Shown one piece after another: positions 14,580 to 19,644 of a stretch of 64,000 nucleotides of DNA. Source of the stretch: an uncultured Eggerthellaceae bacterium. Its GTDB lineage: Bacteria; Actinomycetota; Coriobacteriia; Coriobacteriales; Eggerthellaceae. The position numbers were made by a program, and so were the translations under genes. Each line of letters opens with the position of its first letter. The stretch's first letter is position 1. Location of the stretch: NCBI GenBank assembly GCA_903789375.1, contig CAIFEB010000004.1, positions 65,289-129,288 on the forward strand, in the 5' to 3' direction. Under the pieces are notes generated by a model that saw nothing but the letters and a program-made list of their open reading frames with translations, was not told the origin of the DNA and did no database searches.

Positions 14580-16037
14580 CTACTTCCGCTCGGACGCGTT
14601 CCCGTCCATCTTCGGGCCTTCGAGCGGCAGCTCGTCGGTTTTCGCGCCGGGCTTCTCGTCACCCTCGCTGATCGTACCGTCAACGCTGTAGATCGTCTCC
14701 TTGCCCGGCAGCACGATGTTCAGCACGATGCCCACGATCGAGCCCACGGCCAGGCCCGACAGCGAGATGGTGATGCTGCCCGCCGGGATGACGATGGCGC
14801 CGGCCGCGCTGTACGCGATGCCGATCGACAGCACGATGATGAGCGCCGTGATGATGACGTTGCGGCTCAGCATGAAGTCGACGTGGCCCTCCACCAGGTT
14901 GCGGATGCCCACCGCCGAGATCATGCCGTACAGCACGAGCGACACGCCGCCGATCACGCACGCGGGCATGACCTCGATGACCGCCGAGAACTTCGGGCAG
15001 AACGAGAACAGGATGGCGAAGCACGCCGCGATGCGGATGACGCGCGGGTCGAACACGTGCGTGAGCGCGAGCACGCCGGTGTTCTCGCCGTACGTGGTGT
15101 TGGCCGGCGCGCCGAACAGCGAGGCGAGCACCGTGGCCAGGCCGTCGCCAAGCAGCGTGCGGTGCAGGCCGGGCTCGGCGATATAGTTGCGGTTGCACGT
15201 GGAGCTGATGGCGGAGATGTCGCCGATGTGCTCAATCATGGTCGCGAACGCGAGCGGCACGATGGTGATGATTGCCGTGATGGCCAGGCCCGTATCCATG
15301 TTGGGTCCCATGATGGAGAACACCGTTTCATCCCAGGTGAACGGCATGCCGATCCACGGCGCCTCGGCGACGCGCGTGAAATCGACCAGTCCCAGGCACA
15401 CGGCGCACACGTAGCCCGCGATGACGCCGAGTAGGATGGGGATGATCTTGAGCATGCCCTTGCCCCAGATGTTGAACACGATGATGGTGGCGATGGCCAC
15501 GAGGGCGACGAGCCAGTTGGTCGAGCAGTTCGCCACGGCCGACGACGACAGCGTCAGGCCGATGGCGATGACGATGGGGCCGGTGACGACGGGCGGGAAG
15601 TACCGCATGACGCGCGCGGCGCCGAACGCGCGGAAGAGCGCCGCCAGCACCAGGTACAGAAGGCCCGCGCACGCCGTGCCCAGGCATGCGTACGGAAGCA
15701 TCGCCGTGTTGGCCACAGTGAGGTTGCCCGCGGCGTCCGGCAGAAGCGGCGCGATGGTGGCGTAGCCCGCGATGAAGGCGAACGACGAGCCGAGGAACGC
15801 CGGCACCTTGCCCTTCGACAGCAGATGGAACAGGAGCGTTCCCAAGCCGGCGAACAGCAGCGTCGCCGACACGGACAGGCCCGTGAGCGTGGGCACGAGC
15901 ACCGTCGCGCCGAACATCGCGAACATGTGCTGCAGGCCGAACACCGCCATCTTCGGCTTGCCGAGCGTGCGGGCGTCGTACACCGCGTCAGGAGCGTCCT
16001 CCGCTCCCATCGTCGGTACGCGGACTTCATCTGCCAT
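14580..16037 (-). CDS. Uracil/xanthine permease (NCS2 family)
   Basis: Twelve or more TM helices with NCS2-type motifs (e.g. FGLQHMFAMFGATVLVPTL and GENTGVLALT). Start at MADEVRV (ATG 16037, RBS GGGAAGGGAG). The longer ORF N-terminus looks non-coding. Confidence 0.8.
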   Translation of the reverse strand: MADEVRVPTMGAEDAPDAVYDARTLGKPKMAVFGLQHMFAMFGATVLVPTLTGLSVSATLLFAGLGTLLFHLLSKGKVPAFLGSSFAFIAGYATIAPLLPDAAGNLTVANTAMLPYACLGTACAGLLYLVLAALFRAFGAARVMRYFPPVVTGPIVIAIGLTLSSSAVANCSTNWLVALVAIATIIVFNIWGKGMLKIIPILLGVIAGYVCAVCLGLVDFTRVAEAPWIGMPFTWDETVFSIMGPNMDTGLAITAIITIVPLAFATMIEHIGDISAISSTCNRNYIAEPGLHRTLLGDGLATVLASLFGAPANTTYGENTGVLALTHVFDPRVIRIAACFAILFSFCPKFSAVIEVMPACVIGGVSLVLYGMISAVGIRNLVEGHVDFMLSRNVIITALIIVLSIGIAYSAAGAIVIPAGSITISLSGLAVGSIVGIVLNIVLPGKETIYSVDGTISEGDEKPGAKTDELPLEGPKMDGNASERK

Positions 16038-16355
16038 ACGTCTGGGCTCCCTTCCCTGCTCTTTGCTATTGAACTCGAATGCGCATGATTGAACCCGCGG
16101 CGGCCGTTGAACCGCCGAATACTTCGCCTGCTGGTACCGTGAGCGCGCAAACATGCGCGCGTGAGCCTGCGTCGGGGTTGCGAACATACGCCTGAGCCAT
16201 TGTGCCACAGCCGGGCCCGATTTACGGAAGATTTAACACGGTGCAGGCGCCTTCGCAGCATGCGCGCCCTGATCGAGCGGCTCGTTCTGAGCGCGGCGCA
16301 GCATAAACGCCAAAAATTGAACCACATGCTCGCAGATTTGTTCAAACCGTCTGTT

Positions 16356-16372
16356 TTGAACCGATAGTTCAA
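16356..16372. promoter_or_regulatory. TTGAAC-N5-GTTCAA palindrome (candidate XRE-HTH operator), with further TTGAAC/GTTCAA half-sites through 16318-16480
   Basis: Inverted repeat read directly. Additional TTGAAC/GTTCAA copies occur at ~16327, 16343, 16427 and 16472 in the 470-bp divergent intergenic region. Confidence 0.4.
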
Positions 16373-16505
16373 TTTTTCATGAACACCGCCGTCGTCCGTG
16401 CTACAGTTCACACATGCAATTTGAACTTTTTGGAACGTTCGCCGTTTGAGTCCATTCCCATCAGCAAAGTTCAATTTCATCAGCATGTCGGTTCGAGGAG
16501 GCACG

Positions 16506-18182
16506 ATGGCAGAAGACGTATTCGCTCAACGTCTGAATGAGGCGATGGCCGCACGGGGCGCCAAGCAGGTCGATGTGCTGCACGCCGCGCAGAACCAGGG
16601 CCGCAAGCTAGGGAAAAGCCAGCTCAGCCAGTACGTGAGCGGCAAGACCACGCCGCGCGCCGACACGATGGCCCTGCTCGCCGAGCTGCTCGGCGTCGAT
16701 GCCGCCTGGCTTTCCGGCGCATCGAACGCAGGCGGAGCGCAGGGCACGGTCGCAGCAGAAGCGACCGCAGGTGGCGCATCCACCTCAGACGCAGGCGCAA
16801 ACGCAGCCCAAGCAGGTGAGCCGTCGCGCACCGCCCGCGCCCGATCCCACTCCAACAGCAAGCGCGCCGCAGCCACAAGCTGCGCAAACTCCTCTTCGAA
16901 CACGAAAACCACGACCCCGTCTTCCGCATCCACCCCTTCTCCCGACTCTCCGAAAGGAACGCCCATGCGCACCTTCAGCAAATCAAGCAAGCTCGACAAC
17001 GTCCTCTACGACGTCCGCGGTCCCGTCGTCGACGAGGCCAACCGCATGGAGGAGAGCGGCACGCACGTTCTCAAATTGAACATCGGCAACCCCGCGACGT
17101 TCGGATTCCGCACGCCCGACGAGGTCGTCTACGACATGGCGCGCCAGCTGCCCGAGTGCGAGGGGTATTCCGCGAGCCGCGGCCTGTTCTCGGCGCGCAA
17201 GGCAATCATGCAGTATGCCCAGGTCAAAGGTCTGCCGAACGTCACCATCGACGACGTGTACACCGGCAACGGCGTAAGCGAGCTCATCAACCTGTGCATG
17301 TCAGCGCTGCTCGACAACGGCGACGAGATTCTGATTCCCTCCCCCGACTACCCGCTGTGGACCGCGTGCGCGACGCTCGCAGGCGGCACGCCCGTGCACT
17401 ACATCTGCGACGAGCAGGCCGACTGGTACCCCGACCTGGCCGACATGGAGAGCAAGATCACCGACCGCACGAAGGCCCTGGTCATCATCAACCCGAACAA
17501 CCCCACCGGCGCGCTGTACCCGCGCGAGGTGCTTGAACAGATCGTCGAGATCGCGCGGCGCCACCAGCTGATGATCTTCTCCGACGAAATCTACGACCGC
17601 CTGGTCATGAGCGGCGAAGAGCACGTGAGCATCGCGTCGCTCGCGCCCGACCTGTTCTGCGTCACGTTCAGCGGACTTTCGAAATCGCATATGATCGCCG
17701 GCTACCGCATCGGATGGATGGTGCTGTCGGGTAACAAACGCGCAGCTCAGGATTACATTCTGGGATTGAACATGCTGTCGAACATGCGCCTGTGTTCAAA
17801 CGTCCCCGCGCAGTCCATCGTCCAGACGGCGCTCGGCGGGCACCAGAGCGTGAAGAGCTACATCGTGCCCGGCGGCCGCGTGTACGAGCAGTGCGAGTTT
17901 GTGTACAACGCGCTCAACAACATCCCCGGCATCTCGGTCGTCAAGCCGAAGGCGGCATTCTACATCTTCCCGAAACTCGACGTGAAGAAGTTCAATATCA
18001 CCGACGACGTACAGTTCGCGCTCGACCTGCTGCGCGAAAAGAAGATCCTGATCGTGCAGGGCACCGGGTTCAATTGGGGTCAGCCCGACCACTTCCGCAT
18101 CGTGTACCTGCCGCGCATCGAGCAGCTGTCGGAGGCCATGACGAAGCTCGGCGACTTCTTGAGCACGTACCAACAGCACTAG
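16506..18182 (+). CDS. XRE-family HTH domain fused in frame, via a ~90-aa low-complexity linker, to an AlaA-type class-I PLP aminotransferase
   Basis: N-terminal HTH: QVDVLHAAQNQGRKLGKSQLSQYVSGKTTP...LAELLGVDAAWL. Aminotransferase body starts MRTFSKSSKLDNVLYDVRGPV...LKLNIGNPATFGF (closely resembles E. coli AlaA) and includes an SxSK lysine motif. An internal RBS GAAAGGAA sits 5 nt before the ATG at 16966. Confidence 0.75.
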   Translation: MAEDVFAQRLNEAMAARGAKQVDVLHAAQNQGRKLGKSQLSQYVSGKTTPRADTMALLAELLGVDAAWLSGASNAGGAQGTVAAEATAGGASTSDAGANAAQAGEPSRTARARSHSNSKRAAATSCANSSSNTKTTTPSSASTPSPDSPKGTPMRTFSKSSKLDNVLYDVRGPVVDEANRMEESGTHVLKLNIGNPATFGFRTPDEVVYDMARQLPECEGYSASRGLFSARKAIMQYAQVKGLPNVTIDDVYTGNGVSELINLCMSALLDNGDEILIPSPDYPLWTACATLAGGTPVHYICDEQADWYPDLADMESKITDRTKALVIINPNNPTGALYPREVLEQIVEIARRHQLMIFSDEIYDRLVMSGEEHVSIASLAPDLFCVTFSGLSKSHMIAGYRIGWMVLSGNKRAAQDYILGLNMLSNMRLCSNVPAQSIVQTALGGHQSVKSYIVPGGRVYEQCEFVYNALNNIPGISVVKPKAAFYIFPKLDVKKFNITDDVQFALDLLREKKILIVQGTGFNWGQPDHFRIVYLPRIEQLSEAMTKLGDFLSTYQQH

Positions 18183-18724: not shown

Positions 18725-18871
18725 GCACACGGTTGCGTCCGTCACGCTGCGCGCGTTCGCTCCGTCTTCGCACACGGTTGCGCCCGTCACGCTGCGCGCG
18801 TTCGCTCCGTCTTCGCACACGGTTGCGCCCGTCACGCCGCGCGCGTTCGTTCCGCCTTCGCACCCGCAGCG
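18725..18871. repeat. Tandem direct repeat, 45-bp unit x3.3 (gcacacggttgcgcccgtcacgctgcgcgcgttcgctccgtcttc)
   Basis: Units at 18725, 18770 and 18815, with a diverged partial copy at ~18621. Confidence 0.8.
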
Positions 18872-19644
18872 TCGTACAGCGCACGACCAGCCTTCACGAA
18901 CAGCGCCCAGGCGCCGAGCGCCAGCGCCGCATACGGCAGCAGGTAGCCGGGGTTGCCCACGACGGCGGCCGCCCACTCGAACGGCGTATTGGGCAGCGGT
19001 TTCGTGACGAAGAAGAAGTTCGTGCCGAACACCGGGTTGAACGCCAGGAAGAACGCGCCCGCCGCAACGGCTACGACGAACGGCAGCCACAGCCGCCGAT
19101 ACGACGGCCTATACTCGCGCCCGCAGACCATGCAGATTACCATCGTCACGAGCAGCGCGTGCTCGATGAACCCGCCGATCGACGCGTACGACGCAAGCGG
19201 GCAGTACGTCCAGCTGGGGAACAGCAGGGCGCCCGTCCCGCCGACGCACGCCCACGGATAGAAGACGTCCCCTACCCGCTCGCTTGCGGACAGCGCGAAC
19301 GCAACGGCCAGGTACTCGCAGAAATTGCAGATATGCAGCGGCCAGAACACGGGGATGAACAGGCCGCATGCGACAAGCGCGATGTCGCGCGACGCAAGCA
19401 GCGCCACCGGAACGCACGCGCACGATACAAGGAACCGCCGGCGCGGGCTTCCCCATGCGACGCCTTCGGGCAGACGCATGAACCGCACGACGAGCACGGC
19501 GATGAGCAGGCAGCAGAGCGCGAGCATGAGCAGATGGCCCGTTCCGAACAGCGCGAAACCCGGCCCGCCCGCAGCGAGCCCGCCTTCGTCCATGAACACC
19601 GGCTCGGGCGTGAAGAACGCCGCGAGCGCCGTCTGCACGTCCAT
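18832..19644 (-). CDS. Polytopic integral membrane protein, function unknown
   Basis: 270-aa ORF with ~7 hydrophobic helices. The opposite-strand ORFs are Arg-rich shadows. Confidence 0.5.
   Translation of the reverse strand: MDVQTALAAFFTPEPVFMDEGGLAAGGPGFALFGTGHLLMLALCCLLIAVLVVRFMRLPEGVAWGSPRRRFLVSCACVPVALLASRDIALVACGLFIPVFWPLHICNFCEYLAVAFALSASERVGDVFYPWACVGGTGALLFPSWTYCPLASYASIGGFIEHALLVTMVICMVCGREYRPSYRRLWLPFVVAVAAGAFFLAFNPVFGTNFFFVTKPLPNTPFEWAAAVVGNPGYLLPYAALALGAWALFVKAGRALYDAAGAKAERTRAA

Follow-up and report, generated by a model that had tools for sequence, protein, structure and literature searches.

An alanine transaminase with a phage-repressor-type DNA-binding head: a probable autorepressing enzyme-regulator with two predicted isoforms

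Why would an alanine transaminase carry a DNA-binding head of the phage-repressor kind, and which DNA would that head read? The question is raised by a gene at positions 16506 to 18182 (plus strand) of a 64,000-nucleotide stretch of contig CAIFEB010000004.1, from an uncultured Eggerthellaceae bacterium; this whole stretch is called the window here. In this gene an XRE-type helix-turn-helix (HTH) domain is joined in frame to an aminotransferase of the AlaA type. Our analysis leads us to propose, with a probability of roughly 0.7, that the product is an autorepressing enzyme-regulator, a CI-type head on AlaA, made as two isoforms from one messenger RNA (mRNA).

The open reading frame (ORF) was called at 16446 to 18182 on the plus strand and likely starts at the ATG at 16506 to 16508, which gives a protein of 558 amino acids (aa). 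Its parts are as follows.

16495 to 16501, plus strand: Shine-Dalgarno (SD) sequence GAGGAGG of the long isoform, a sequence reading (duplex energy -11.6 kcal/mol; orthologue mean -8.79 kcal/mol)
16506 to 18182, plus strand: full-length ORF of the predicted long isoform (558 aa plus stop), comprising a CI-like XRE HTH, a disordered linker and an AlaA-type alanine transaminase
16506 to 16721, plus strand: HTH domain (aa 1 to 72) with five helices and the recognition helix K37 to S45 (KSQLSQYVS)
16722 to 16964, plus strand: disordered, low-complexity linker (aa 73 to 153), rich in Ala, Ser and Thr and about 81 aa long; AlphaFold2 (AF2) confidence (predicted local distance difference test, pLDDT) about 30 at aa 75 to 148

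Pfam places HTH_3 at aa 36 to 69 (E 3.7e-6; 27.3 bits against a cut-off of 23) and Aminotran_1_2 at aa 187 to 546 (E 1.4e-54). The AF2 model, built on 67 homologues, folds the head into helices 2 to 16, 21 to 30, 37 to 45, 52 to 62 and 66 to 70 at pLDDT 95 to 97 and gives a moderately good prediction of the aminotransferase body. Both the HTH_3 match and the five-helix fold place the head in the XRE/Cro-C1 class; 16 to 18 of its residues are invariant across homologues, and PHROG repressor families also match it (E 2.7e-12). The initial annotation of this DNA had described an XRE-type HTH fused in frame to an AlaA-type aminotransferase through an Ala/Ser/Thr-rich linker of about 90 aa. The fusion is borne out by the Pfam domains, by the alignment to the Escherichia coli AlaA structure 4CVQ and by all 80 orthologous loci considered below, and the linker has the composition described but is shorter, at about 81 aa.

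The same architecture extends well beyond the source genome. The 120 highest-ranking homologues in the database come from Eggerthellaceae, Olsenella, Slackia, Collinsella and Bifidobacterium; they are 497 to 610 aa long, and nearly all span 99 to 100% of the query. Moreover, when one genome of each species was scanned for the HTH pattern K[LI]GKS[QH]xSQY, at least 597 loci matched, and the best 80 of these underlie all analyses of orthologous loci reported here. They cover Coriobacteriia, Bifidobacterium and many Clostridia (Mediterraneibacter, Eisenbergiella, Anaerostipes, Roseburia, Faecousia); some are metagenome-assembled genomes with unreliable labels, and a few oddly labelled bins are probably misassigned. 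The HTH is in frame with the aminotransferase ORF in 80 of the 80 species loci, contig ends excepted. The linkers that join the two parts range from 7 to 109 aa (median 33), are rich in Ala, Ser, Pro, Thr and Gly, and are hypervariable to the point of being unalignable; nevertheless the 78 assessable linkers are free of in-frame stop codons, while their other two frames contain 157; that every linker would stay open has a joint chance of about 1e-42. Comparing fused with separate genes among orthologues had been put forward initially as the way to check the fusion, and neither a stop codon between HTH and aminotransferase nor a linker frame that fails to be kept turned up in any of the 78. By these comparisons the fusion is conserved and selected and is no accident of the source genome. 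The architecture, which had been called unusual, is common in genomes, with at least 597 species loci, and deserves that word only relative to the literature; an XRE-AlaA fusion, its operator and its internal start were not found described in the literature searched, coverage of which was incomplete, and an earlier description is possible.

Stand-alone relatives of the head were sought among 1.84 billion representatives in a 50%-identity library, and mostly short proteins were returned. The short matches that were inspected are frameshifted or chimeric assemblies of the same fused gene and hence provide no evidence for split genes. Because the linker contains no stop codon, a separate 17-kDa HTH product, as envisaged in the initial annotation, is not expected; the predicted products are of about 59 to 60 kDa and about 44 to 45 kDa. 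The same library holds three proteins, P0126, P0127 and P0128, with 3, 7 and 10 stretches that match the same CI-like HTH, P0126 having in addition a long C-terminal extension past the HTH repeats; these are unrelated architectures that reuse the CI-like head.

The enzyme half, aa 154 to 558, aligns with E. coli AlaA (PDB 4CVQ) without a gap (phmmer E 8e-170; query residues 3 to 404 on chain residues 29 to 430), at an identity of about 60% as estimated by eye. The internal Met154 aligns with Met1 of E. coli AlaA, which is 405 aa long, exactly as the window protein is when counted from the aligned Met (PMC4094517). The best NCBIfam model is PRK08363, alanine aminotransferase, at 355 bits, under its equivalog cut-off of 534. 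Residues invariant in 67 sequences include K393, the lysine that binds pyridoxal 5'-phosphate (PLP), in the motif SKSH, as well as the motif NPNNPTG, N331 and N332, D360, Y363, R531, Y168, R171 and G172, while P173 of the plug Y168-x-V-R-G-P is nearly invariant; the roles of these catalytic and plug residues are those assigned in the AlaA work (PMC4094517). Judging from the full-length similarity and from this complete set of catalytic residues (PLP lysine, Asn, Asp and Tyr contacts, carboxylate Arg and plug), the enzyme half is a real, intact AlaA-type alanine transaminase. Three homologues, P0003, P0004 and P0015, have internal duplications of 50 to 80 aa in the aminotransferase domain, which are probably assembly artefacts.

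If the enzyme is an ordinary AlaA, the next question is what the head binds, and the DNA in front of the gene offers a candidate. The intergenic region (16038 to 16505) is 468 bp long and contains nine TTGAAC/GTTCAA hexamers, against 0.38 expected and a maximum of 4 in 5000 dinucleotide-preserving shuffles. A TTGAAC-N5-GTTCAA pair lies exactly at 16356 to 16372, and other exact hexamers stand at 16317 (+), 16340 (-), 16421 (+) and 16469 (-); together with three copies near the divergent gene, this gives seven hexamers beyond the pair, where the initial annotation had counted four or more additional half-sites. The promoter elements are listed below, with scores from a position weight matrix (PWM) trained on hexamer-anchored sites.

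16314 to 16325, plus strand: candidate operator site O1, AAATTGAACCAC, PWM 18.9, at the upstream edge of the conserved promoter block
16337 to 16348, minus strand: weak operator-like site with GTTCAA core at 16340 to 16345, an exact hexamer with poor flanks, PWM below 12
16353 to 16364, plus strand: weak operator-like site with TTGAAC core at 16356 to 16361, an exact hexamer, PWM below 12, the left arm of the N5 palindrome
16364 to 16375, minus strand: candidate operator site O2, AAATTGAACTAT on the minus strand, PWM 22.5, abutting the putative -35
16379 to 16384, plus strand: putative -35 ATGAAC, a one-mismatch operator variant with a TGAAC core, 17 bp upstream of the -10
16399 to 16407, plus strand: putative extended -10 TGcTACAGT, with the family motif TGnTAnnnT
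16418 to 16429, plus strand: candidate operator site O3, AATTTGAACTTT, PWM 22.9, just downstream of the transcription start, which is predicted near 16413 to 16415
16466 to 16477, minus strand: candidate operator site O4, AAATTGAACTTT on the minus strand, PWM 22.7, in the leader about 20 nt before the SD

O1 forms an 11-nt perfect inverted repeat with 16367 to 16377, and O3 and O4 form a 12-nt inverted repeat. In the 64-kb window, strong PWM matches are confined to this promoter and one intragenic position. The block from 16308 to 16505 is almost invariant in relatives that are 98% identical, whereas divergence and indels mark the central part of the intergenic region. A scan with the strict sigma-70 consensus found no promoter here, and the promoter is instead placed by the motif TGnTAnnnT, which is present in 61 of the 81 upstream regions of orthologues, whereas shuffles give 20.6. 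An Rfam search of 15900 to 16700 (E of 1 or less) returned no match, which argues against a known riboswitch or leader RNA in that interval.

The orthologues turn this array into a family-wide footprint. Across the 400-bp upstream regions of all 80 orthologues, TTGAAC/GTTCAA outnumbers every other hexamer, with 352 copies, and its density falls from 21 per kb in the proximal 200 bp to 1.18 in the genes' own coding sequence and 0.39 in the remaining 358 kb of the loci. When the sites are oriented, their consensus is AAATTGAACTTT, with flanks that persist when the alignment is anchored on TGAAC alone; the conserved unit is thus an asymmetric site of about 12 bp that is used in either orientation. 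The TTGAAC-N5-GTTCAA palindrome to which the initial annotation had drawn attention has the coordinates given there, yet its two arms are a weak site (16356) and a strong one (16367), and therefore the palindrome is not the conserved unit. Promoters carry three to six sites, found also downstream of the -10 and in the leader: one covers the -35 region or the spacer in 44 of 57 promoters, further ones lie at +10 to +35 and about +50 from the -10, and the last typically abuts the SD (AAATTGAACTTTTGGAGG). Spacings between adjacent sites peak near 11, 20, 31 and 42 bp (clusters at about 8 to 13, 18 to 23, 29 to 34 and 41 to 43), which corresponds to helical phasing. Orientation tends to alternate in Coriobacteriia, while Clostridia have direct repeats.

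Two further candidates were considered and set aside. Operators within the gene were suggested by matches at 17072 to 17085 (LKLNIG, score 16.4) and 17986 to 17999 (KKFNI, 22.1), which come from conserved peptides; the Leu codon at such matches is TTG in 11 of 79 cases against 9% overall, and this background usage argues against nucleotide-level selection for intragenic sites. A leader RNA hairpin formed by the inverted sites at 16418 to 16429 and 16466 to 16477 is possible in the window and is not general, because the Clostridia loci have direct repeats only.

What connects these sites with the fused head is the head's nearest relative of known structure. Among solved structures, a profile search with the HTH places the N-terminal domain (NTD) of the TP901-1 CI repressor closest (E 6.6e-16), and the recognition helices are nearly identical (KSTLSQYV in TP901-1 CI and KSQLSQYV in the window), residue 39 being Q or H among the orthologues. 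The CI proteins of TP901-1 and phi13 recognize the half-site AGTTCAYR, and a C-to-G change in its core abolishes binding (PMC4941734, PMC7250872, PMC8516035). Read on the opposite strand, the conserved site, AA-AGTTCA-ATTT, holds the same six-base core. At the sequence level the window protein thus has both the N-terminal homology and the half-site of a TP901-1-type CI; the helical-hook C-terminal domain for dimerization and hexamerization and a MOR partner in a divergent switch are missing, the C-terminal part being the aminotransferase and the divergent neighbour a permease in the window and variable elsewhere. The fused HTH most likely reads the TTGAAC/GTTCAA sites, and the core match of its homologue is the strongest argument for this short of an experiment. 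The suggestion in the initial annotation that these sites are plausible operators for the HTH is strengthened by this match together with the footprint in 80 of 80 promoters.

The second peculiarity of the gene is a start site at the boundary between linker and enzyme. The initial annotation had noticed an SD sequence and a Met codon there; both are conserved across the family, and the ATG lies at 16965 to 16967 rather than starting at 16966.

16952 to 16959, plus strand: internal SD sequence GAAAGGAA, 5 nt before the internal ATG, duplex energy -5.9 kcal/mol
16965 to 18182, plus strand: ORF of the predicted enzyme-only short isoform (405 aa plus stop), starting at the internal ATG 16965 to 16967 (Met154)

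The gene thus holds a conserved start codon and SD inside an ORF, as expected of in-frame internal initiation. A start codon occupies this position in 75 of 77 assessable loci (73 ATG, 1 GTG and 1 TTG). In the 75 loci that were aligned, from two phyla, positions -13 to -8 before the internal ATG are about 90 to 99% purine, a 4-mer SD core is present in all 75, and a 5-mer SD is present in 66 of the 75, against 7.2% at random codons. The tripeptides encoded by this tract vary greatly (40 are listed for the 75 loci; KG, EG, GG, RS, QEV and others), whereas codon choice is strongly biased: Arg is encoded by AGG in 22 of 31 cases (71%) against 7.8% in the rest of the gene, and Gly by GGA in 57% against 18% elsewhere. 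The mean SD energy of -8.24 kcal/mol compares with -2.96 kcal/mol at 861 other in-frame Met codons (p = 1.5e-32) and matches that of the N-terminal start (-8.79 kcal/mol). A promoter of its own for the short product was rejected, as extended -10 motifs show no excess upstream of the internal ATG (4 of 79 loci against 4.6 expected), and the short product would hence come from the same mRNA. Conservation of the tract and of the start at the nucleotide level suggests that the 405-aa, enzyme-only isoform is probably also made. Public annotation alternates between 558-aa and 405-aa models, and both are probably real. For P0121, which clusters with the window protein at 90% identity, the IMG gene caller gives 405 aa and the NCBI and ENA records give 558 aa.

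These observations can be combined into one mechanism. The gene would encode an active AlaA-type transaminase (glutamate + pyruvate <-> alanine + 2-oxoglutarate) that appears to have gained, at its N-terminus and on a flexible tether, a DNA-binding head of the TP901-1 (phage CI) type, and one mRNA would give both a long isoform (ATG 16506, 558 aa) and a short isoform (ATG 16965, 405 aa). The enzyme domain presumably dimerizes like all fold-type-I aminotransferases, and a dimer of two long chains would then carry two tethered HTHs, each of which would read one site of about 12 bp, AAATTGAACTTT, with the core AGTTCA/TGAAC. Three to six sites in multiples of about 10.5 bp would cover the -35 and start regions as well as the leader as far as the SD (16314 to 16477 in the window), and because their occupancy would block RNA polymerase, the gene would repress itself and hold the transaminase at a steady level. 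More speculatively, the short isoform may give rise to one-headed or headless dimers that tune repression and set the loop gain.

The geometry of AlaA may add a metabolic input. In the E. coli enzyme, the N-terminal arm's opening ten residues lie in the dimer interface, and the plug closes over the substrate (PMC4094517). Since the linker is attached to residue 1 of this arm, which reaches interface and plug, the state of substrate or cofactor could influence DNA binding, especially in orthologues with linkers of 7 to 20 aa; it is a speculative possibility that ordering of the arm upon binding of substrate or cofactor modulates the head. This leads to a more ambitious version of the model, which we regard as tentative, namely a self-titrating trigger enzyme in which the ratio of long to short isoform is fixed, the two combine into dimers with two heads, one or none, only two-headed dimers or arrays of them on the phased sites repress effectively, promoter output is non-linear in total enzyme level, and alanine, pyruvate, glutamate or the PLP/pyridoxamine 5'-phosphate (PMP) state could gate binding.

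Several other explanations were weighed against that of an autorepressing enzyme with two isoforms. As the internal Met lies exactly at the ancestral AlaA start, the natural null hypothesis is that only the full-length fusion matters, that no enzyme-only product arises, and that the internal SD and ATG merely survive from the old alaA start or else make ribosomes pause. The two orthologues without an internal start and the moderate strength of the SD in the window (-5.9 kcal/mol) fit such a relic, and ribosomes arriving from upstream can occlude internal sites. A relic would decay, however, and this purine tract has been kept at about 90 to 99% in loci of two phyla amid a hypervariable linker, with a strong preference for the rare AGG and for GGA codons and with a mean SD strength equal to that of the N-terminal start; moreover, GTG or TTG stands in two of the four cases in which Met has been replaced. 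We therefore consider a mere relic unlikely. Even less probable, in our judgment, is the view that the TTGAAC sites are -35-like promoter elements or operators of an unlinked regulator, with the fused HTH binding elsewhere or nowhere. It is true that TTGAAC resembles TTGACA and that a forward copy sits exactly at the -35 in 29 of 57 promoters. Against this, the sites occur in both orientations, they lie downstream of the -10 and within the leader too, all 80 loci with the fusion have them regardless of neighbours or phylum, their conserved AAA...TTT flanks exceed a -35 box, and their core is the validated half-site of the nearest HTH homologue, whose recognition helix is almost identical.

The long isoform might instead activate the promoter, or bridge or loop DNA for another purpose, as tethered two-headed dimers could do; in some loci, several sites lie upstream, at -45 to -75 relative to the -10. 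The dominant positions, namely the -35 region and spacer and +1 to +35, with the last site abutting the SD, are nevertheless those of a classical repression layout, and activation or looping therefore seems improbable indeed. The slimmest chance is left to a pure regulator akin to MocR/GabR, in which the aminotransferase fold would be a ligand sensor and no working enzyme. An HTH, a long linker, a fold-type-I domain and several spaced sites do parallel MocR (PMC5320631). The HTH is of the XRE type and not of the GntR type, however, the AlaA alignment is gapless at about 60% identity (by eye) with catalytic and plug residues invariant, and a conserved internal start for the domain without the HTH makes sense only if the enzyme works.

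Some observations weigh against the autorepressor model itself. PWM scores are partly circular because the matrix was trained on hexamer-anchored sites, a circularity that does not extend to the contrast in hexamer density or to the flanks recovered with the 5-mer anchor. The comparison of promoter sites covers fused loci only, namely the best 80 of at least 597. A forward TTGAAC at the -35 position could be a plain -35 box, and repression rather than activation is inferred from site positions alone. The internal SD of the window (-5.9 kcal/mol) is weaker than both the family mean and the gene's N-terminal SD (-11.6 kcal/mol). Finally, two loci, L009 and L041, have lost the internal start and its SD together and have kept the promoter site array, and the short isoform is thus not indispensable. 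These two loci are natural "long-isoform-only" variants.

A comparison with known systems helps to place the protein. With E. coli AlaA (YfbQ, PDB 4CVQ) it shares the end-to-end gapless alignment over 405 aa, the lysine that binds PLP, the Tyr contributed by the partner subunit, the plug Y-x-[IV]-R-G-P and the carboxylate Arg, and a homodimer is expected; in contrast to AlaA, which has no DNA-binding domain, residue 1 of its arm is joined to a linker and an HTH. For E. coli AlaA, no regulation of its own promoter was described in the literature retrieved. Like the CI repressors of TP901-1 and of Staphylococcus aureus phi13 (PDB 3ZHI, 3ZHM, 5A7L, 6TRI), the window protein has an HTH on a flexible linker, a separate dimerizing domain and several operators around a promoter. 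TP901-1 CI, however, uses a helical C-terminal domain to dimerize and hexamerize and has MOR as its antirepressor, and its operators are inverted repeats, AGTTCA-N7-TGAACT with YR flanks, whereas the window system has direct or inverted sites at variable, phased spacing with A/T-run flanks and, as its dimerizing module, a metabolic enzyme. For TP901-1 CI itself, binding by the dimer is far stronger than binding by the NTD on its own (PMC4941734).

The resemblance to MocR, GabR and PdxR lies in a DNA-binding head on a long linker to a dimeric PLP-fold domain, in spaced repeats and in frequent autoregulation (PMC5320631). In those regulators, however, the head is a GntR winged HTH and the aminotransferase domain is a sensor rather than an orthologue of a housekeeping enzyme. 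A Pfam scan of the window protein returned only XRE-type models (HTH_3, HTH_31, HTH_19) and no GntR model. Because the enzyme half is a real AlaA and the HTH is of the XRE and not the GntR type, the protein is, as far as domain comparison goes, no member of MocR, although its architecture is analogous. It does not belong to the phage CI repressor family either; it is a member of the AlaA enzyme family and of the XRE HTH family. In MocR proteins, we know of no conserved internal start that yields the domain alone.

A further functional parallel may be found in the trigger enzymes PutA, BirA and NadR, which combine a metabolic enzyme and a repressor of its own pathway in one polypeptide, a combination indicated here by sequence comparison and involving another enzyme and another fold. 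NadR also has an XRE-like N-terminal HTH. To our knowledge, none of the three has, besides the fusion, a conserved internal start in the same frame from which the enzyme alone would be made. Such in-frame internal initiation has precedents in Tn5 transposase and its inhibitor, ClpB 93/79, IF2 alpha/beta and CheA L/S, where an additional SD and start codon within the ORF yield a shorter protein that lacks the N-terminal domain; the short form of Tn5 transposase does not bind DNA and forms mixed oligomers. Compared with these precedents, the isoforms proposed here are deduced from sequence conservation only, and the truncated product would be a complete metabolic enzyme.

The 468-bp region in front of the gene is shared in the window with a divergent gene at 14580 to 16037 on the minus strand, which belongs to the Xan_ur_permease family (E 2.5e-86). 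The initial annotation had described a divergent promoter region of about 470 bp shared with a uracil permease; size and family agree with this, but the pairing is not conserved, as a tblastn search of the 80 loci recovered no homologue of the permease and the divergent neighbour varies among them. Permease co-regulation as a conserved feature was rejected on these grounds, and since the permease neighbour is not conserved, the sites appear to serve the aminotransferase promoter. The permease-proximal hexamers form a separate group.

16069 to 16112, plus strand: three weak TGAAC-core sites near the permease start (hexamers at 16069, 16089 and 16107), PWM 12.3 or lower

These hexamers are spaced by 20 and 18 bp, lie 30 to 75 bp upstream of the permease start and keep their cores in the 98%-identical relatives; they may reflect lineage-specific co-regulation of the permease or be low-affinity sites. 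A second repeated motif, CATGCGC(GC), occurs in the permease-proximal half of the intergenic region at 16078 to 16086, 16151 to 16163 and 16258 to 16267. It includes a perfect palindrome, ATGCGCAT, and a near-palindrome, CATGCGCGCGTG, part of one copy is deleted by a 14-nt indel in close relatives, and the motif may serve another regulator as its operator. Downstream of the aminotransferase gene, a 45-bp tandem repeat (3.1 copies, 95% identity) at 18725 to 18863 overlaps the 3' end of a convergent TMEM164-family gene (18832 to 19644, minus strand).

Our findings would add an XRE/phage-CI head to the short list of enzyme-regulator fusions and suggest that a MocR-like architecture has arisen independently with a partner that appears to be fully catalytic. 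They may also show, in a natural case, how a conserved internal start sets the regulatory form of a protein apart from its catalytic form, with the lesson for gene callers that the 558-aa and 405-aa models are both probably real. Current annotation describes these proteins only as "aminotransferase class I/II-fold PLP-dependent enzyme."

Through alanine transaminase, pyruvate, glutamate and alanine are connected, and with them carbon status, nitrogen status and the supply of cell-wall precursors. If the proposed autorepression is true, numerous abundant commensals of the gut, among them Bifidobacterium, Collinsella, Olsenella, Slackia, Eggerthellaceae and many Lachnospiraceae, would control this node by a regulator built into the enzyme itself. 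Should the more tentative self-titrating version also hold, Bifidobacterium, Coriobacteriia and Lachnospiraceae would possess a direct metabolic feedback on a central nitrogen-carbon node by way of a domesticated phage-repressor head.

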